Positions 9,930 to 61,380 of a stretch of 64,000 nt of DNA are shown in pieces. Where the stretch lies: the NCBI GenBank assembly GCA_030019215.1, contig JASEEZ010000003.1, forward strand, positions 12,109 through 76,108, in the 5' to 3' direction. Position 1 is the first letter of the stretch. Each line of letters starts with the position of its first letter. The DNA comes from Actinomycetota bacterium (GTDB lineage Bacteria; Actinomycetota; Aquicultoria; Subteraquimicrobiales; UBA9087). Made by a program: the position numbers and the translations under genes. The notes under the pieces were generated by a model. That model had not been told where the DNA came from and did no database searches. It was given only the letters and a program-made list of their open reading frames with translations.

Positions 9930-10121
9930 GTGGTTTGTAGCAAAATTCTGTATGATGTTGAGCCTAGGCTACGGGAGAAACGTTATGGGGAAGGTCTGCC
10001 AAGCGTGTATTATGATTCAGAATCTTATAAAGTTAAAAAAGAATGCTGGAAGAAAACAGGATTTATCAGACGTAGAAGTGTTAGAGAAAGTGGAAAAGGT
10101 TCTTGCAAAGGAAGAGGATGA
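9930..10121 (+). CDS. small hypothetical ORF in AT-rich insert (a 59-aa alternative frame with a CQAC pair also exists)
   Basis: 63-aa ORF in a roughly 35% GC island between the duplicated tRNA-Arg end and tadA. No recognisable family. The coding frame is uncertain. Confidence 0.2.
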   Translation: MVCSKILYDVEPRLREKRYGEGLPSVYYDSESYKVKKECWKKTGFIRRRSVRESGKGSCKGRG

Positions 10122-10303
10122 AACGGACTAAAGTTTTGAAGGGATACCATCATAGCTATTCTGAGGAATCTATTAAACAATATATGGCTTTGCCTACCGA
10201 AATGAAACTCAAATGGTTGGAGGAGGTAAATAGATTTTCTTACTGCGCTTTACCCCCAAAAAACAAAAAAATTAGGGAACTTCTTAGAGCTGGTAAAATT
10301 TAG
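10103..10303 (+). CDS. small hypothetical protein (66 aa, basic N-terminus, helical C-terminus) in AT-rich insert
   Basis: 'MQRKRMKRTKVLKGYHHSYSEESIKQYMALPTEMKLKWLEEVNRF...'. Low-GC codon usage unlike its neighbours. Possibly a remnant cargo gene of an integrated element. Confidence 0.25.
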   Translation: MQRKRMKRTKVLKGYHHSYSEESIKQYMALPTEMKLKWLEEVNRFSYCALPPKNKKIRELLRAGKI

Positions 10304-10973: not shown

Positions 10974-11217
10974 AATATGTGCGGGGCGAATCCCACCCCC
11001 TCCGCTACCCCGCCTGTGGCAGGGTGCCCTGAGCTTAGCTGAAGGGCGAGATAGCAATTAGTTAGTAGTGGGGGAGTTGGGGGCCGGAGTTAATGAAAAA
11101 TGGAGAACGAAAAATGAAAAATTACAACGTAAAATTAAGAATGTTTTTAAATCCTTAAATCATTCTTCATTTTTAGTTCTTAATTCTGACTGTCAACTAA
11201 CAGACTCTTGATTAACT

Positions 11218-11308
11218 GGAGGAGTCGCATAGTTGGCCTAGTGCGCGCGACTGGAAATCGCGTTGGGTACCAAAAGTACCCTCGAGGGTTCGAATCCCTC
11301 CTCCTCCG
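11218..11308 (+). tRNA. tRNA-Ser (anticodon GGA), type II, CCA not encoded
   Basis: Acceptor GGAGGAG/CTCCTCC. Anticodon loop CTGGAAA. Long variable arm. T-arm GAGGGTTCGAATCCCTC. Discriminator G followed by CTA. Confidence 0.8.
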
Positions 11309-11351
11309 CTAGTTGGAAAATCTTTCTTTTTGATTCATAAACAGATATTTT

Positions 11352-11433
11352 TAGAGTGTAGAGTGGGGACGCTGTAGAGTAGAGTGGGGACGCTGTAGAG
11401 TGGGGACGCTGGTTGCAACTGTTGCAGTCGTCC
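11352..11433 (+). repeat. three tandem TAGAG(TAGAG)TGGGGACGCTG repeats ending in an imperfect GGGACG...CGTCCC hairpin (REP/subterminal-hairpin-like), directly 5' of the Y1 transposase gene
   Basis: Tandem copies read at 11352-11374, 11375-11395 and 11396-11411. Hairpin GGGACGCTGGTTGCAACTGTTGCAGTCGTCCC at 11404-11433. Confidence 0.6.
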
Positions 11434-11456
11434 CTTAATTCTGTTAAATTCAGCCT

Positions 11457-12446
11457 ATGCCCAGACAACCAAGACTTGAAGCCCCAGGACTTATCTATCA
11501 CGTAATTGCACGAGGAATAGAGAGAAGAGAGATCTTTACTGACAAGGATGATTACACCTTCTTTCTTACCTGTTTTGGCGAGATTTTAGTTGAGACTCAT
11601 GCAGATTGTCTTGCTTTCTCTCTTCTTCCCAATCACTTTCACCTTCTGTTTAGATCAGGGGAAATTCCTCTCTCAACCATTATGAGACGACTTCTCACCA
11701 GATATGCTTTATTCTTCAACCGAAGACACAGACGATCTGGTCATCTTTTCCAAAACCGCTACAAATCAATCATTTGTCAAGAAGACCCCTATCTTCTCGA
11801 GCTTGTGCGCTATATTCATCTTAATCCCATACGAGCAGGCATTACAAAATCCTTGAGTGAGCTTAATTCCTATTCCTATACAGGACATAGCGCTCTCTTA
11901 GGAAGAGCACGCTTTGGCTGGTACCTGCCAGAAGCTATTCTTGGCTACTTTGGCAAAACTCAAAAGAAAGCTATCAAGAAATACTTAGAATTCATTGGTG
12001 ATGGTCTATCAATGGGAACAAATCCCACATATACTGGCAACAGCCCTAAGAGCTCTTTTGGTTATCCAAAGAGATATCCCAAGAAAAAGCAGATCTCTGA
12101 TGGGAGAATCCTTGGAGATGAAGATTTTGTCCGCGCTCTACAGGAGTGTGAAGAGAAAGAAAAGGAGAAAGGGAGTAAAGTGAGTATAGAAGAGTTGACT
12201 AAACGAGTAGCTAAGACATATTCTTTGGAGCCTGAGCAAATTAGAGGGAGGGGGAGAGCAAAACAATTAAGAGAAGCGAGAACTTTAGTAGCTTACGTTG
12301 CCACTACTTACCTAGGTTTTTCTTTTGCCGAAATAGCTCGTTACCTGAAAGTACATCGCTCAACATCAGCTAGAATGTTAGAGCGAGGCAAAGAGATTGC
12401 AAAGGGTATCGATGCTAAGCAGTGGATAATAGCAAAGGAGAAGTAA
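11457..12446 (+). mobile_element. IS200/IS605-type (Y1, HUH) transposase domain fused to a DnaA-C-terminal-like HTH domain (RAYT-like)
   Basis: 329 aa. N-terminus 'LIYHVIARGIERREIF...LLPNHFHLLF...FQNRY' (HUH plus catalytic Tyr, the Transposase_17 pattern). C-terminus 'QLREARTLVAYVATTYLGFSFAEIARYLKVHRSTSARMLERG' is DnaA_C-like. It is flanked by REP-like repeats. Confidence 0.7.
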
Positions 12447-12535
12447 TGCAACAAATACAACGAACGTCCCTTATCCCTTTTATCCCTTCAACGAACGTCC
12501 CTTATCCCTCTTATCCCTTATAGTTGCAAAGATTT
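12447..12535 (+). repeat. two direct CAACGAACGTCCCTTATCCCT(Y)TTATCCCTT repeats bracketed by TGCAAC...GTTGCAA, 3' of the Y1 transposase gene; CGTCCC is inverted relative to the upstream GGGACG repeats
   Basis: Direct repeats read at 12458-12489 and 12490-12521. TTGCAA motifs at both ends mirror the GTTGCAAC of the upstream hairpin. Confidence 0.55.
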
Positions 12536-12587
12536 ATTATTTTTCCATCAAAGTCGCGGCGATAACCACCAGAAAAGGTGAGTGTAA

Positions 12588-13565
12588 GTGGACAAAATTA
12601 TAGAGGTTGAGAGTTTGACCAAGAAGTTTGGTGAACTAGTTGCTGTCGATTGTGTCTCCTTCGATGTTGAAAAGGGGGAGATATTTGGCTTTCTCGGTCC
12701 GAATGGGGCGGGGAAGTCGACCACCATAAATATGCTCTGCACGCTTCTCAAGCCCACTTCGGGTGGGGCGATTCTCAATGGATTCGATGTCCTCAAGGAA
12801 CCCCATGCGGTCCGCAGATCGATAGGGCTAGTCTTTCAGGATCCGAGCCTGGATGATCGCCTCACCGCCAGAGAGAATCTGGAGTTTCACGCCATGGTCT
12901 ATAATCTCGCCCCAAAGGATATGTGGGATAGAATAGCGGAAGTCCTCCGCTTGGTTGATCTCGAAGACAGGCAGAATGACCTGGTCAGAAACTTTTCCGG
13001 AGGAATGAAAAGGAGGCTGGAGATCGCCCGGGGTCTCATTCACTATCCGAAGGTTCTCTTTCTGGACGAGCCAACCCTGGGGCTGGACCCCCAAACCAGG
13101 AATCACATCTGGCAATATGTCCACGACCTCAAGGAGCGCGAGGAAATCACCATCTTTTTGACCACCCACTATATGGACGAGGCTGAAAACTGCGGCCGCA
13201 TAGCCATCATCGATTACGGAAGGATAATAGCCCTGGATACCCCGGATGGTCTAAAAAGGCAAGTGGGCGGAGATATCATTACCATAAAGACTGTTGATAA
13301 TGAAAGGGCTGCTCGGGAGATAAAGGAGAGATACGGTCTCGAGGTGTCAAGGGATGATGGGTCGTTAAAGTTTGAGATAGTTCGAGGAGAGGAGTTCATA
13401 CCCGATCTCATAAGCGGACTTAGCATCGAGATAACGTCCATCAACTGGAGGAAACCCACCTTGGAGGATGTGTTCCTCAAGCTGACGGGTCGAGCTATAA
13501 GGGAGGAGGATGCCGGGCCGGTGGATCGCATGCGGATGTACGCCAGGACCAAGGGGAGACGCTGA
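12588..13565 (+). CDS. ABC transporter ATP-binding protein (ABC-2/DrrA-like exporter ATPase)
   Basis: GTG start. Walker A 'GPNGAGKST'. Signature 'FSGGMKRRLEIARGL'. Walker B 'VLFLDEPT'. Confidence 0.85.
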   Translation: MDKIIEVESLTKKFGELVAVDCVSFDVEKGEIFGFLGPNGAGKSTTINMLCTLLKPTSGGAILNGFDVLKEPHAVRRSIGLVFQDPSLDDRLTARENLEFHAMVYNLAPKDMWDRIAEVLRLVDLEDRQNDLVRNFSGGMKRRLEIARGLIHYPKVLFLDEPTLGLDPQTRNHIWQYVHDLKEREEITIFLTTHYMDEAENCGRIAIIDYGRIIALDTPDGLKRQVGGDIITIKTVDNERAAREIKERYGLEVSRDDGSLKFEIVRGEEFIPDLISGLSIEITSINWRKPTLEDVFLKLTGRAIREEDAGPVDRMRMYARTKGRR

Positions 13566-19883: not shown

Positions 19884-21632
19884 GTGTCTTACATCTCTCT
19901 GTATAGAAAATATCGTCCTCAGACTTTTGGGGAAGTCGTTGGCCAGACCCACATCACTCAGACCCTGGCCAACGCGGTCAAGCAGAATCGCTTCTCCCAT
20001 GCCTATCTCTTTGCCGGACCCCGAGGAACGGGAAAGACAACCACCGCCAGAATCTTTGCCAAGGCACTCAACTGTGCCAAGGGGCCGACTCCCACCCCTT
20101 GCAATGAATGTGGAATCTGTTTGCAGATAATCGGGGGAAACTCCATCGACGTTCTGGAGATAGATGCCGCCTCCAACCGGGGCATAGATGAGATCAGGGA
20201 TCTAAGGGAAAAGATCCGCTTCACCCCGACGGAGGCTCGATACAAGATGTATATAATAGACGAAGTTCACATGCTTACCCCCGAGGCCTTTAACGCTCTC
20301 TTGAAGACGCTGGAGGAACCGCCTGAATGCGTAGTCTTCGTCCTGGCGACGACGGAACCTCATAAGGTTCTCCCCACGATCCTCTCTCGCTGTCAACGCT
20401 TTGATTTCAGGCGTATCCCGATTTCGGATGCGGTGGGATACCTCCACCAGATTGCGAAGGCCGAGGGAATAGTCATCGACGAGACTGTTCTTCCCTTGAT
20501 TGCCAGGCAGGCTCAAGGCTCCTTGAGAGACGCCATTGGGGTTCTGGAGCAGTTGTCCTCCTTTGCCGGTGAGAAGATCGGCCTGGATGAGGTTATCTCC
20601 CTTCTGGGCATGGTCGAAATTGAACTCCTGTTCGAGATCGTGGATATAGTGAGCAGGAGGGATACGGCCGGCGCCCTTTTCTTCGTGGAGAGGTTGATGG
20701 GGAGCGCGAGAGACATCCGGCAGTTCACGAAGGAACTCATAGACCACCTCAGAAATCTCTTCGTCATCCGGAGCACCGATGAACCGGCGGGGATGATAGA
20801 TGCTACCCCTGATGCCCTGGCCAGGATGGAGGCCCAGGCCTGCTCTTTCCAGCCATCCGAGATAATGAGATTCATGGATATTCTGACGGAAACTCACGGC
20901 GAGATGCGCTGGAGTCCAGATGCCAAGCTTCTCCTGGAGATGGCCCTGGTCAAGATGACAAAGCCGGAGGTGGATGCGTCTCTTGATGGGTTGCTGTATA
21001 GGATCGATGAGCTAGAGAGAAAGATCGAGGGACGAGGGACGAGGGACGAAAGTCAGAAGATAAAGAAGTTAGAGGCGAAAGAAATGGGGGAGGTGCACGA
21101 GGTTGAAGAGGTAAAAGAGGGAGAAGGCGCGAAGAAGGGGAAGGTGGAAGCGGTAAAGGGTACAGCGGGTGGAAAAAGAGATGAAGCGACACCCAGCCAG
21201 CAACCAGTTATCGGAAAGCAGGCTACAGGTCAAAAAATAGATATTGCTAGGGTGAGAAGAGCCTGGCCGGTGATTTTGAATCAGGTTAAAGAGAAGAAGA
21301 TATCCACTTACGCCCTCCTTCTGGAGTGCCAACCCTCCTCGGTAACGGAGAAGACCATCGTCCTGGAGTTCAGCGAGAGGGCCTCCTTTCATTTGCAGGA
21401 GATGGAAAAATCTCGCAATTTGAAGGTGCTCTTGCAATCTTTGAAAAAGGTATTGGGCATGGATGTGGATGTCGAGTGCACTTTGAGAGAGGATGAGGGA
21501 CCGAAGTCTCGGGAGACATCCCTCCGGGAAGAAAAGTTAACCGAGGAGCCGGTCGAGCCCCATATCGTCAAGCTGGTTCAGGATAGTTTCGGAGCAGAGA
21601 TAATCGAGGAAGTTGAATTCACAGAAGACTGA
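19884..21632 (+). CDS. dnaX: DNA polymerase III subunit gamma/tau
   Basis: GTG start. 'YRKYRPQTFGEVVGQTHI', Walker A 'GPRGTGKTT', and clamp-loader sensor motifs. Low-complexity acidic linker. Confidence 0.9.
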   Translation: MSYISLYRKYRPQTFGEVVGQTHITQTLANAVKQNRFSHAYLFAGPRGTGKTTTARIFAKALNCAKGPTPTPCNECGICLQIIGGNSIDVLEIDAASNRGIDEIRDLREKIRFTPTEARYKMYIIDEVHMLTPEAFNALLKTLEEPPECVVFVLATTEPHKVLPTILSRCQRFDFRRIPISDAVGYLHQIAKAEGIVIDETVLPLIARQAQGSLRDAIGVLEQLSSFAGEKIGLDEVISLLGMVEIELLFEIVDIVSRRDTAGALFFVERLMGSARDIRQFTKELIDHLRNLFVIRSTDEPAGMIDATPDALARMEAQACSFQPSEIMRFMDILTETHGEMRWSPDAKLLLEMALVKMTKPEVDASLDGLLYRIDELERKIEGRGTRDESQKIKKLEAKEMGEVHEVEEVKEGEGAKKGKVEAVKGTAGGKRDEATPSQQPVIGKQATGQKIDIARVRRAWPVILNQVKEKKISTYALLLECQPSSVTEKTIVLEFSERASFHLQEMEKSRNLKVLLQSLKKVLGMDVDVECTLREDEGPKSRETSLREEKLTEEPVEPHIVKLVQDSFGAEIIEEVEFTED

Positions 21633-21954
21633 AGACCAGCGGCCAGAGGTCAGGGGTCAAGAGTCAGGGGGCACGGGTCAAGGGATAAAGAACCAGGGAC
21701 GAAGGGTGAGAGAAGCAAAGAACGAAGGGTGAGAGAAATATAGGAACAGGGGGATTAACTTCCTGGTTTCCTAGCTTCCCGGGTTTCCTTGTTTTCATCC
21801 GACAGCCGACATCCATCATCCGACGAGGAATTTTCTCTAAGCTCTGAGCTCTTGGCTCTAAGCTAGCTGACAACTGTCATCTGTGAACTGTCAGCTATTT
21901 CGAATAACTAATAACGAATGGGCATGAAAATTTATGAGTAAAGGAGCGATCTCG

Positions 21955-30004: not shown

Positions 30005-30135
30005 GCTAAGGGACGAAGGGCGAAGGACGAGGGACGAAGATTTTTTCAGCCGTCATCCGACATCCGACGGCACAAGGCACAAGGCACCTGACATCCGTCA
30101 TCCGACAAGAACTAGAAATGAGTGGTGAAGAAAAA

Positions 30136-37879: not shown

Positions 37880-37996
37880 TCCACTGGCCAGGAACCAGAG
37901 TTCAGGGGCCAGCCTTCAGCTACCAGTCACCAGGTACGAGGCACAAGGAACCAGGAACCAGGAACCAGGAACATCTGTCATCCGACAAGATCGTTT

Positions 37997-39016: not shown

Positions 39017-39077
39017 TCTCACCTTTTGCCACTCGTTCCGAGTTCCGTTATTAGGAATTAGTTATTCGAAATTCGTC

Positions 39078-39215
39078 TGTCAGCTTAGAGCTCGGAGTTT
39101 AGAGCTTAGAGAAAAATCTTTTGTCTCTACGCTCTCTGCTCCCTGCTCTCTGCTTTCCTCGTTATTCGTCCTTTCGCCCTTCGTCCCTGACCCCTGGCCT
39201 CTGTCAACCGTCAAC
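39078..39215. repeat. ~135 bp repeat element, copy A (CAGCTTAGAGCTCGGAG...CTCTACGCTCTCTGCTCCCTGCTCTCTGCTTTCCTCGTTATTCGTCC...CCTGGCCTCTGTCA)
   Basis: About 95% identical to the reverse complement of 54062-54200. The termini are shared with a diverged third copy at 61141-61380. Confidence 0.7.
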
Positions 39216-39362
39216 CAACTTTGTGTCCCCACATATCTCTATTAATCTCAATTTATCTCCACGAATCCCCATCTCGCCGAAATCCAGCATCCAACCGCCA
39301 ACTAGTTTTAGAAGGTGTTCCTCTTTTTTACCCGAAATATAAATTGAAAAGGGGCGGGGAGA

Positions 39363-54061: not shown

Positions 54062-54200
54062 CAGAGGCCAGGGTTCAGGGACGAGGGACGAAGGACGAAT
54101 AACGAGGAAAGCAGAGAGCAGGGAGCAGAGAGCGTAGAGGCAAAAGATTTTTCTCTAAGCTCTAAGCTCCGAGCTCTAAGCTCCAAGGAACCAGGAACAA
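54062..54200. repeat. ~135 bp repeat element, copy B (inverted relative to copy A at 39078-39215)
   Basis: The reverse complement aligns at about 95% identity with 39078-39215. Confidence 0.7.
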
Positions 54201-54258
54201 GAAACCAATCATCCGACCTCCGTCATCCGACATCCGGCAGAGTGAGGAGGAAGAAAGA

Positions 54259-55667: not shown

Positions 55668-56576
55668 TTGGTGTTCAAGATCGTTAAAAAAGAAGAACTC
55701 ACCGCCGATGTTTACCTGATCGAGTTGGAAGCCCCCGACATTGCCAGGAAAGCACAGCCTGGTCAGTTCATCGTGCTTCGCATCGGCGAGCGAGGCGAGC
55801 GCATCCCTCTGACCATCGCCGATTTTGACCGGGCAAAAGGAACGATTTCCATCCTCTTTCTGGTGGTTGGTAAGTCCACCAGGTGGCTTTCCGATCTCCG
55901 GGCCGGGGATCACCTTGTTGATGTCAGCGGTCCACTGGGCAAACCGAGTGAGATAGAAAGGGTGGGGACCGTCCTTTGTGCTGGTGGTGGAGTGGGGATA
56001 GGTGCCATTCATCCAATTGCCCGAGCCTTTCGCGAGGCGGGCAACCGTGTCATCGTGGTCATGGGTTTCCGCAGCAAAGACCTCATCGTCTTCGAGGATG
56101 AGATGAGGGCAGTCTGCGACGAGTTTCATATCTGCACCGACGATGGTTCCCGCGGTTTTAAGGGTTTCGTAGCCCAGTTGGTCGACAAAATTCTTAAAGA
56201 AGACGAGGTCGATCTAGTCTATGCCATTGGCCCCACGATGATGATGCGCACCGTCTGTGATACCACTCGGCCTCACAGGATAAAAACTGTGGTTAGCCTG
56301 AACCCAGTTATGGTGGATGGTACGGGGATGTGTGGTTCTTGCCGGGTCTCGGTGGGTGGAAAGACTAAGTTCTGCTGTGTGGACGGCCCCGAGTTCGATG
56401 GCCAGCAGGTGGACTTTGACCTGCTCATGGCCAGACAAAAAATTTATCTAGAAGAAGAGAAACTATCGATGGAGCGATATGAAGCAAAAGGGGAAGGACG
56501 AAGGGCGAAGTCCGAAAGGCGAGTGAAGGACGAAAAGCGAAAAGCGGAGGGCGAGTGTCGAAAAGTGAAGAGTTGA
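55668..56576 (+). CDS. nfnA: NfnA/SudB-type ferredoxin-NADP+ reductase small subunit (FAD/NAD-binding, PyrK-like, [2Fe-2S]); its C-terminal ~30 aa are encoded by a GGACGAAGG-type repeat
   Basis: 'GQFIVLRIGERGERIPLTIA', 'LCAGGGVGIGAIHPIA', 'CGSCRV...C'. The tail 'AKGEGRRAKSERRVKDEKRKAEGECRKVKS' is translated from repeat DNA. Confidence 0.75.
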   Translation: MVFKIVKKEELTADVYLIELEAPDIARKAQPGQFIVLRIGERGERIPLTIADFDRAKGTISILFLVVGKSTRWLSDLRAGDHLVDVSGPLGKPSEIERVGTVLCAGGGVGIGAIHPIARAFREAGNRVIVVMGFRSKDLIVFEDEMRAVCDEFHICTDDGSRGFKGFVAQLVDKILKEDEVDLVYAIGPTMMMRTVCDTTRPHRIKTVVSLNPVMVDGTGMCGSCRVSVGGKTKFCCVDGPEFDGQQVDFDLLMARQKIYLEEEKLSMERYEAKGEGRRAKSERRVKDEKRKAEGECRKVKS

Positions 56577-56577
56577 A

Positions 56578-56964
56578 ATGAAAGATAGATTGGAAAATAA
56601 CGATATCTATCAAAAAGCAGTTGAAATATATAATAAATTTTTGGAAGAGGATTTGGATATTTTGAGGAGAGATTATTGCGGCCGCGAAGTTGGAAAACAG
56701 CTGATATGTAGTTTGGGTTCGATAAGTTCGAATATCGAAGAGGGTTATGGAAGAGGATTCGGTAAAGAGTATATATATTTTTTAAGGGTTGCTCGAGGGT
56801 CGGCGAGGGAAAGCAAAGGTTGGTATCAGCGAAGTAAAAAATTTCTTCCGCCTAAGATTATTGACCAAAGAGTAAAAGCATTGGATGAAATTATTTCTAT
56901 GTTGGTTGTGACTGTAAATAAACTGGAAACAAAAATTCGTCCTTCGTCCCTCGACCTTCCGTGA
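56578..56964 (+). CDS. four-helix-bundle protein (TIGR02436, 23S rRNA intervening-sequence protein family), low-GC insert between nfnA and nfnB
   Basis: 'VGKQLICSLGSISSNIEEGYGRGFGKEYIYFLRVARGSARESKGW' matches the family's GKQLxRSxxSIxxNIAEGYGR...ARGSxxE core. About 35% GC versus about 55% in the neighbours. Flanked by inverted GGACGAAGG / CCTTCGTCC repeats. Confidence 0.75.
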   Translation: MKDRLENNDIYQKAVEIYNKFLEEDLDILRRDYCGREVGKQLICSLGSISSNIEEGYGRGFGKEYIYFLRVARGSARESKGWYQRSKKFLPPKIIDQRVKALDEIISMLVVTVNKLETKIRPSSLDLP

Positions 56965-58487: not shown

Positions 58488-58691
58488 ACTCTTCTCCAAA
58501 AATAGTGGGTGGAACAACTAGGTGCGATGAAGCCTAAAGAGAACTTTAGGATTCAGGGATTCTAGGGGCCAAGGGGTCAAGTGAAAAACACTTGAATCCT
58601 CGAATCCTTGAACCCTCGAACCCTTCTACGTGCAACTCTTTTGAGAAAAGAACAAGATTAAAAGTTTATCCACTAAAAATGGAGAAGAACC
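58488..58691. repeat. ~230 bp repeat element, copy 2 (same termini as 32187-32436)
   Basis: End-to-end alignment with copy 1. Sits directly upstream of the histidine kinase gene. Confidence 0.65.
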
Positions 58692-61140: not shown

Positions 61141-61380
61141 AAATCAGCTTAGAGCTCAGAGCACGGAGCTAGTGAGTTGATAGTCGTCAGTCGGGAGTCG
61201 TCAGTTTTTAGCCCCCAGCTTCCAGTCGCCAGTTACCAGTCCTCTTTGGTTTTGCTGAAAGCTGGCAGCTGGAGGCTGGAGGCTGTTATTTTTACTCCCC
61301 ACTCCCGACTTTCTATCCACGCTGGTGGCTGGAAGCTGGTAGCTGGCCCCTGGCCTCTGTCATTTGTTATCCCTCATTTG
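61141..61380. repeat. diverged third member of the CAGCTTAGAGCTC...CCTGGCCTCTGTCA element family with a different word-repeat interior (AGTCGTCAGTCGGGAGTCG; GCTGGCAGCTGGAGGCTGG)
   Basis: Shares both termini with the copies at 39078 and 54062. The interior is replaced by other oligo-word tandem repeats. Confidence 0.5.

Follow-up and report, generated by a model that had tools for sequence, protein, structure and literature searches.

What kind of unit is formed by a gene that fuses a Y1 tyrosine-transposase domain to a DnaA-like helix-turn-helix (HTH) and lies between oppositely oriented GGGACG and CGTCCC units? One such gene, encoding a 329-aa protein, is found in a 64,000-nucleotide (nt) stretch of the metagenome-assembled genome (MAG) of an uncultured Actinomycetota bacterium (contig JASEEZ010000003.1). 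This whole stretch is called the window below, and all window searches were confined to its 64 kb. An earlier note on the same DNA had compared the locus with REP (repetitive extragenic palindrome)-associated tyrosine transposases (RAYTs) and with the subterminal hairpins of IS200, and had suggested that the flanking units are substrates spread by the enzyme. We find it quite probable that the locus is instead a TIRtron, a single-gene unit encoding a terminal inverted repeat (TIR)-associated tyrosine transposase (TIRYT), with the anatomy, history and mechanism proposed here. The element is an additional member of a class already described under three names: TIRYT/TIRtron, TnpAY1 subclass 2.1.2 and RAYT group 1.

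The protein and its class

Both domains named in the earlier note were recovered above their Pfam cutoffs: Y1_Tnp over residues 12-121 (1.2e-13; 51.7 bits against a cutoff of 23) and Bac_DnaA_C (PF08299) over residues 244-303 (4e-9; 36.8 bits against a cutoff of 31.5). The protein is RAYT-like and not IS200-like. Its top NCBIfam match is REP_Tyr_transpos, at 66.5 bits and under the curated cutoff of 80, while the IS200 model NF033573 gives 13 bits against a cutoff of 55.

TnpAY1 subclass 2.1 is defined by the motifs NH[YF]H, FQ and Y[IV]HLNP together with a C-terminal HTH, which in subgroup 2.1.2 resembles Bac_DnaA_C (Quentin 2018, PMC6006769). The same paper equates the subclass with RAYT group 1 (Bertels 2017, PMC5581495) and with the TIRYT genes (Di Nocera 2013, PMC3733652). 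The window protein has N59-H60-F61-H62 as its HuH motif (NHVH or NH[YF]H in the subclass), F98-Q99 as its 'W' motif (W[EQ] or FQ) and Y119-I-H-L-N-P124 as its Y motif (YIELNP or Y[IV]HLNP); the C-terminal HTH (Bac_DnaA_C, HTH_23 or HTH_28) was found with Pfam, by a PDB profile search and with Foldseek. Across 27 aligned homologs H60, H62, F98, Q99, Y102, Y119 and N123 are invariant, and P124 is kept in at least 90 %. The protein carries YHVIARG, LLPNHFHLLF and FQNRY, the last of which had been taken for the tyrosine motif. It is the 'W/FQ' motif of the family, which is distinct from the tyrosine motif. Since the class-2 tyrosine motif is Y---NP (PMC6006769), the most likely catalytic nucleophile is Y119, within Y119-IHL-N-P.

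Structural comparison gave a similar picture. The best Foldseek match of an AlphaFold2 model (pLDDT 82.6) was the REP-bound E. coli TnpAREP 4ER8 (E 2e-6; template-modelling (TM) score 0.76 on the target), followed by TnpA of ISDra2 and IS608. The C-terminal domain of the model matched the DnaA DNA-binding domain 3PVP with a TM score of 0.70, and the family profile found DnaA domain IV in the PDB at 4e-5. Full-length relatives, labelled 'transposase' or 'REP element-mobilizing transposase RayT', number in the thousands; an exhaustive HMMER search of 50 %-identity clusters returned 33,592 at E <= 0.001 and 1,336 at E <= 1e-30.

Inverted repeats that span the gene

The longest inverted repeat of the region pairs 11403-11426 (GGGACGCTGGTTGCAACTGTTGCA) with 12447-12470 (TGCAACAAATACAACGAACGTCCC), 19 of the 24 positions being complementary, and its score was matched by 6 of 500 shuffles of the flanks. 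These arms lie 30 nt ahead of the ATG and 0 nt past the stop codon, which are the family positions. The canonical TIR positions are likewise taken by the GGGACG copy nearest to the gene, 54 nt upstream of the ATG, and by the nearest CGTCCC, which ends 24 nt past the stop. The Y-transposase gene therefore stands between TIRs, as TIRYT genes do, and the same architecture was found in most of 76 related loci.

All of the closest homologs with readable flanks carry GGG(G)ACGTTGGTTGC[A/G]nnTGTTGC[A/G] ending 30 nt before the ATG, and in all of the closest homologs the reverse complement of the left TIR starts 0-2 nt past the stop, as in the window. Their loci bear GGG(G)ACGTTGGTTGCnnnTGTTGC at window-like distances from the gene, and a left TIR of the same sequence type and position is present in L010, L011, L012, L014 and L022. 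We also compared 80 further, more distant loci from metagenomes, whose proteins are 39-55 % identical. GGGAC occurs 40-95 nt upstream of the ATG in 67 of the 76 related loci (histogram peak at 50-64), and GTCCC at most 60 nt downstream of the stop in 56. The earlier suggestion that the opposed units are functionally meaningful ends is upheld.

TIRYT genes are flanked by TIRs ('TIRtrons') that carry GGGGWSAS in some but not all published cases (PMC3733652). The left tip of the window element, GGGGACGC, matches this motif at 7 of 8 positions, and the tip of L050, GGGGACAC, fits it exactly. The family tip consensus is (T)AGGGGACG[T/C], with GGGGACG[T/C] given by about 80 loci; the GGGGACG part hardly varies across the family. 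The inner 15-20 nt of the TIR are element-specific, yet alike at both ends of one element: the left inner 22 nt match their own right TIR at a mean of 74 %, and the right TIRs of other elements at 40 %. Direct sub-repeats occur within this inner part, with a period of 8 in 29 % of loci and of 9 in 10 % (~2 % in shuffles). Judged from these alignments, the feature conserved in relatives is a gene-spanning TIR, and neither the subterminal hairpins of IS200 nor the doublets of REPs or bacterial interspersed mosaic elements (BIMEs); the geometry first put forward for the locus is not the one that its relatives share.

A family promoter was derived from 81 loci aligned at the ATG. TTGACA (at most one mismatch) starts at -36 or -35 in 35 of them and lies within -42..-28 in 44, and an extended -10 element, TGnTAnnnT, runs from -15 to -7 (TG.TA at -15..-11). 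Only 4 of the 81 have a Shine-Dalgarno-like motif, and the geometry relative to the ATG predicts a leaderless mRNA. In the window the candidate -35 box overlaps the inner end of the left TIR; a generic sigma-70 scan left this promoter uncalled, with 8 of 12 positions matching, under the scan threshold.

Absence from a related genome and possible movement in the family

To the right of the element, from 12545 onward, the related sequence L102 is 92 % identical to the window at the nucleotide level, and to its left the last stretch that the two have in common is 11195-11310 of the window (L102 999-1113; blastn). L102 spans the full tRNA-to-ABC interval, in the order tadA, tRNA-Ser(cga), tRNA-Ser(gga), 277 nt unrelated to the window, and the ABC gene, without the Y1 gene; the 277 nt stand where the window has a segment of 1234 nt. 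For L103 (97 % identical), 332 nt ahead of the ABC gene were available, and they hold no trace of the element. The window segment has a G+C content of ~41 %, against 53 % for the window as a whole (composition profile). These data show that a low-G+C segment with the element is absent from the same tRNA-Ser/ABC interval in a related genome; a recent gain of the window copy, through insertion or horizontal transfer, is probable. According to the earlier note, flanking repeats absent elsewhere in the genome and a single gene in conserved synteny would have pointed to domestication. The repeats are indeed absent from the rest of the 64 kb, but the gene is without conserved synteny, missing from the L102 site and without trace in L103, so domestication at the window locus is not indicated.

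Two family members, L082 and L085, are 99.5 % identical over 993 nt and have unrelated flanks. Their shared block starts on the left at GG|ACGGCAAAGGGGACG (GG|ACGGCAAAGGGGACGTAGG) and ends on the right in ...CCTACGT|. At one end of four elements (left in L027 and L090, right in L044 and L082), ATATA|ACGT replaces GGGG|ACGT, and the four proteins are only 42-48 % identical. ATATAACGT had no other occurrence in 379 kb of related loci. Target-site duplications gave no systematic signal, with 3 of 44 loci above the 99th percentile of the null; long flanking direct repeats were present only in L014 and L078, and the 10-nt TAGTTG[G/C]AAA pair at 11310 and 12521 of the window is within chance expectation. 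The lack of a general target-site duplication fits HUH chemistry. The comparison suggests a family of low-copy elements with occasional movement or transfer and otherwise vertical inheritance.

Several further observations concern element ends. The ATATA|ACGT ends may show where strands are cleaved or joined, or may represent an alternative target. A 24-32-nt direct repeat lies outside both TIRs of L014 (4560-4650 and 5650-5700; GAGTTTAAGGTCTGTGCCGTCCG...ATCAAATAG) and matches the 3' end of the molybdopterin oxidoreductase gene upstream; L078 is similar, and other loci have no such repeat. The whole contig of L013 (1063 nt) runs exactly from GGGGACG to CGTCCCCT, and the right ends of the Logan contigs L015, L016 and L018-L021 stop 1-2 nt outside the right TIR tip. 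Contig ends at TIR tips point to branching of the assembly graph at element ends, as expected if flanks vary within populations. In L110 and L112 (L110 4764-4794, L112 5486-5516 and 4601-4629), a lone copy resembling the left TIR is present 0.8-1.5 kb beyond the downstream end of the element, and L112 has a decayed gene fragment; the noncoding stretch concerned varies in length between MAGs of one population. L103 has at 279-303, ~45 nt upstream of the ABC gene, a hairpin GCGTCCCG-CACAAGTA-CGGGACtGC with both tip pentamers, which could be a terminator, a footprint or chance.

A proposed division of labour between the two domains

In our model, the C-terminal DnaA-domain-IV-like HTH would bind the element-specific sub-repeats in both TIRs and so position the enzyme. 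At the left TIR it would probably also repress the element's own promoter; binding there would cover the -35 box, which suggests autoregulation. The HUH/Y1 domain (H60, H62, Y119) would cut and rejoin one strand at the conserved tip and would make no target-site duplication. The GGGG/ACG junction is the probable cut site, as suggested by the L082/L085 boundaries and the ATATA|ACGT ends. The conserved tip is thus a candidate site for the conserved catalytic domain, and the variable paired sub-repeats are a candidate for the variable HTH. The extra tandem tips (three left, two right) would be secondary end duplications and not a dispersed REP family.

We compared the similarity of inner TIRs with the identity of each protein domain. 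For the HTH, r = 0.59 (partial r = 0.41 given the Y1 domain; permutation p = 0.001), a correlation that carries no phylogeny correction and is confounded by shared ancestry; for the Y1 domain, partial r = 0.20 given the HTH (permutation p = 0.001). Doubt has been cast on recognition of the TIR by the HTH, since GGGGWSAS is unlike the DnaA box (Quentin 2018, PMC6006769). Our comparison suggests the sub-repeats as an alternative candidate target.

A stronger version of the model would make TIRtrons active and autonomous: the HTH would read sub-repeats spaced 8-9 bp in the duplex TIR, overlapping the leaderless promoter, HUH/Y1 would nick GGGG|ACG, and the tandem tips and ATATA|ACGT ends would be footprints of this activity. 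We put this forward tentatively, and think it somewhat improbable in its entirety. If true, it would amount to a hybrid recognition mode undescribed for Y1 transposases, and it would run counter to the literature, in which no evidence of mobility is reported for class-2 TnpAY1 genes.

Besides the shared ancestry behind the HTH correlation, a number of points weigh against this reading of the locus as a TIRtron that has moved. The window TIRs, at 19/24, are more degenerate than the family norm, and the window copy may therefore be no longer mobile. The proposed cut position rests on one near-identical pair and four variant ends. The identical proteins P0013, P0039 and P0051 each occur in one context across many samples, and L012 and L014, at a gene identity of only 72 %, still have the same upstream neighbour, from which it appears that much of the family behaves as single-copy and vertically inherited, RAYT-like. 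A plasmid search gave 24 distant matches, all below 40 % identity among the 15 listed; this rarity and distance indicate a mostly chromosomal family and count against mobility. The literature found on the TIRYT class is descriptive.

The element could be the same and yet have a DnaA-like domain that targets replication forks or origin-like DNA instead of the TIR, as suggested in Quentin 2018. The domain is homologous to DnaA domain IV (3PVP, 1L8Q, 1J1V), with the same HTH fold, HUH transposases act on the lagging-strand template, and four TTATCCC 9-mers outside the right TIR agree with the DnaA box TTATCCACA at 6 of 9 positions. However, the inner TIR co-varies more with the HTH than with the catalytic domain, the 8-9-bp spacing of the sub-repeats is typical of tandem HTH sites, and the wide divergence of HTH sequences among elements would not be expected if all of them recognised one universal host target. 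Unlike in DnaA, the fold is here fused to a nuclease/ligase domain, and the candidate sites, GTTGCA spaced 9 nt apart, are unlike the DnaA box. We consider fork targeting unlikely, and retain the TIR as the candidate target.

Tandem copies of the tips

The upstream units are, as the earlier note had it, three in number: Tandem Repeats Finder reports an array GTAGAGTGGGGACGCT(G) at 11358-11411, with periods of 21 and 16 and 100 % matches, which contains three copies of GTGGGGACGCTG, at 11363, 11384 and 11400. Downstream, two copies were confirmed, of a unit of 31 nt and not 21 (12458-12519, 96 % matches). TTGCAA, said to bracket them, stands at 12524, but the sequence at 12447 is TGCAAC. The surplus tip copies in the window lie 70 and 91 nt upstream and 55 nt downstream.

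Across the family, extra copies of an element's own 10-nt tip were found in 3 of 64 left and 4 of 54 right flanks (~5-7 %; ~1 in mismatched controls). Examples are L012, L010, L023, L068 and L097; L110 is a further case, with a 16-nt tandem duplication of the left tip. Tip duplication is a real but minority feature of the family, and its presence at both ends makes the window locus unusual. We rejected tandem tip duplication as a family trait on account of its weak enrichment (7 ends against ~2 expected). A plain count of the 5-mer GGGAC across related loci gave no orientation bias.

Right outside the right tip of the window element (12471-12519) are TTATCCC(T)T 9-mers, which are pyrimidine-rich. 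The CGTCCC-TTATCCC junction recurs in L014, TATTCCC is present four times outside the right tip of L012, and short pyrimidine-rich repeats also adjoin the tip in the left flanks of L014 and L017.

Short tandem arrays abound in other intergenic DNA of the window, and plain slippage may therefore be the cause of the tandem tip units. In the fullest form of this explanation, the gene would be an immobile relic or recruited by the host, and its tandem units would be products of replication slippage with no link to enzyme activity. The many intergenic arrays of 7-16 nt, the degenerate TIRs, the rarity of extra tips in the family and the single-copy behaviour seen elsewhere are all in keeping with it. 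However, the open reading frame (ORF) is intact, every catalytic motif is present and the promoter is of the family type; close relatives lack the segment, whose G+C is foreign; and the duplicated units hold the exact TIR tip, at both ends and in the correct orientation. This makes a relic distinctly unlikely, and favours a TIRtron with secondarily duplicated ends.

Dispersal and the local hairpin

A domesticated REP-associated transposase (REPtron) would have spread its flanking GGGACG units genome-wide as REP/BIME-like hairpin substrates. GTGGGGACGCTG and CGAACGTCCC were confined to this locus within the window, and degenerate TIR searches of the window found nothing else convincing and no REP-type dispersed hairpin. 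In a genome-contig collection without the source MAG, the 17-mer GTAGAGTGGGGACGCTG gave 9 single, unrelated chance matches. With no other copy of the unit or the TIR in 64 kb, a high-copy REP-like family is unlikely; several copies would be expected in such a stretch from a family of several hundred. The idea that the flanking units are REP-like substrates spread by the enzyme is not supported by these window searches.

The left TIR can fold onto a nearby CGTCCC (11403-11434) at -8.8 kcal/mol (z = -3.3), and 2 of 200 shuffles folded equally well. The earlier note had asked whether it is conserved at every copy boundary. As a conserved feature it was rejected, the corresponding regions of the close homologs L010, L011 and L012 folding no better than shuffles; what these homologs conserve is the gene-spanning TIR.

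The REPtron draws on the top matches in NCBIfam (REP_Tyr_transpos) and by fold (REP-bound TnpAREP), on the many family members that are single-copy and stably placed, on the moderately abundant TIR-derived repeat families of a few genomes (Di Nocera 2013, PMC3733652) and on the hairpin at the left end. Against it stand, beside the results above, an NCBIfam score below the curated cutoff, the report of no REPs near subclass 2.1 genes (Quentin 2018, PMC6006769), and the absence of the gene from the L102 site and of any trace in L103. E. coli TnpAREP itself (4ER8) is the best catalytic-domain match and shares HUH and Y---NP, but it has ~165 aa, no HTH, GTAG-footed REP hairpins in hundreds of copies and a syntenic single-copy gene. 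We judge the REPtron very unlikely.

A canonical IS200/IS605 insertion sequence, with asymmetric subterminal hairpins and single-strand 'peel and paste' transposition, would share the Y1_Tnp domain, the HUH and Tyr residues, the lack of target-site duplications and the near-identical copies in different contexts, but is scarcely credible in view of the 13 bits against 55 for the NCBIfam model, Y---NP instead of Y---Q, ends that are symmetric inverted repeats, the missing tnpB and a length of 329 aa with an HTH against ~150 aa.

Comparison with described systems

The locus resembles the published TIRYT/TIRtron units (PMC3733652) in having a RAYT-like gene between long TIRs, at similar distances and with a GGGG-type start; some published TIRs are also duplicated or clustered. 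It differs in its tip (GGGGACGC, the published motif being GGGGWSAS), in its tandem tips at both ends and in its uncultured Actinomycetota MAG host. With subclass 2.1.2 (PMC6006769; RAYT group 1, PMC5581495) it shares the exact motif set, the Bac_DnaA_C-like HTH, the lack, within the 64 kb, of nearby REPs and a patchy distribution consistent with horizontal transfer. PMC6006769 reports no evidence of mobility, whereas in our comparisons the site is empty in a relative, near-identical copies occur between unrelated flanks, and HTH and inner TIR co-vary. TnpA of IS200/IS605 (IS608, ISDra2) has the HUH/Y1 fold and makes no target-site duplication, but has Y---Q, ~150 aa and asymmetric subterminal hairpins, is often accompanied by tnpB and is multicopy.

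As a single instance the element matters little, being a further TIRYT gene from an uncultured member of the Actinomycetota. The family-level regularities (invariant tip, matched and element-specific inner TIRs with sub-repeats, promoter inside the TIR, empty site, near-identical copies and a possible cleavage position) provide testable hypotheses on how an HUH tyrosine enzyme might act on inverted repeats instead of hairpins, and bear on the question of whether RAYT group 1 is domesticated or still mobile.

Layout of the locus and other features of the window

The features are collected in Table 1. The right neighbour of the Y1 gene is an ABC-transporter ATPase gene (12588-13565). The adjacency of tRNA-Ser on the left is incidental, since 84 related loci have 1 tRNA among them and none within 400 nt of an element. 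No tnpB gene was found at the element and no paralog in the window, where the similar-sized ORFs beside other repeat arrays are unrelated housekeeping genes. The PHROGs library gave 0 matches, and tRNAs were the only Rfam matches above threshold.

Table 1. Coordinates of the element, its parts and its surroundings (window positions, or residues for protein domains)
Feature	Position	Strand	Basis and details
tRNA-Ser(GGA)	11218..11309	+	ARAGORN; Rfam tRNA 54.2 bits; left neighbour of the element
Window-specific segment, 1234 nt, holding the whole element	11311..12544	.	blastn against L102/L103; composition profile
Two extra tandem copies of the left-TIR tip, together with 7-12 nt from beyond the TIR (GTAGAGT(AGAGT)GGGGACGCT)	11358..11401	+	Tandem Repeats Finder; repeat search
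Left TIR GGGGACGCTGGTTGCAACTGTTGCA	11402..11426	+	Tip GGGGACG and two direct GTTGCA sub-repeats 9 nt apart
Hairpin GGGACGCTG...CAGtCGTCCC, left TIR folding onto nearby CGTCCC	11403..11434	+	DNA fold; this locus alone
Predicted promoter, leaderless mRNA, no Shine-Dalgarno	11422..11450	+	-35 TTGCAG 11422-11427; 17-nt spacer to TAAATT hexamer; extended -10 TGtTAAATT 11442-11450; ATG 11457
Y1-HUH and DnaA-like HTH gene, 329 aa, ATG start	11457..12446	+	ORF, Pfam, NCBIfam, homolog alignment, AlphaFold2, Foldseek
Y1-HUH domain	~residues 1-135		NHFH 59-62, FQ 98-99, YIHLNP 119-124; then conserved middle region
DnaA domain-IV-like HTH	~residues 243-318		Pfam, PDB profile search, Foldseek
Right TIR TGCAACAAATACAACGAACGTCCC	12447..12470	+	Begins immediately past the stop; placement as in homologs
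Sequence beyond the right TIR, with TTATCCCTT 9-mers and with the outer 13 TIR nt present again (CAACGAACGTCCC, 12489-12501, inside the second 31-nt unit)	12471..12519	+	Tandem Repeats Finder, periods 31 and 9; inverted-repeat and pattern searches

Elsewhere in the window, mosaics of short (7-8 nt) tandem repeats (ACCAGGA, GAGCTTA, CATCCGA, GGGACGA) occupy many intergenic regions: 21026-21049, 21644-21919, 30011-30087, 37929-37972, 39047-39259, 54077-54236, 56488-56557, 56936-56959, 58549-58625 and 61268-61346. They are reminiscent of cyanobacterial arrays of the STRR (short tandemly repeated repetitive) type, and similar arrays occur in L102. GGGACG, contained in the heptamer GGGACGA, is also part of the TIR tip, which may be coincidental. 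One heptamer mosaic of 122 nt is present twice in opposite orientation at 95 % identity (39082-39203 and 54062-54182), with partial copies at 21828-21864, 21028-21050 and 37944-37987; it is a dispersed repeat unrelated to the TIR of the Y1 gene. A gene for a 23S rRNA-intervening-sequence protein (PF05635) lies at 56578-56964, with GGACGAA/TTCGTCC heptamer arrays on either side. Finally, an AT-rich stretch at 9930-10303 (G+C 0.35-0.45), between tRNA-Arg and a tadA-like deaminase gene, has overlapping ORFs of 59-66 aa and may be another small insertion in the tRNA cluster.

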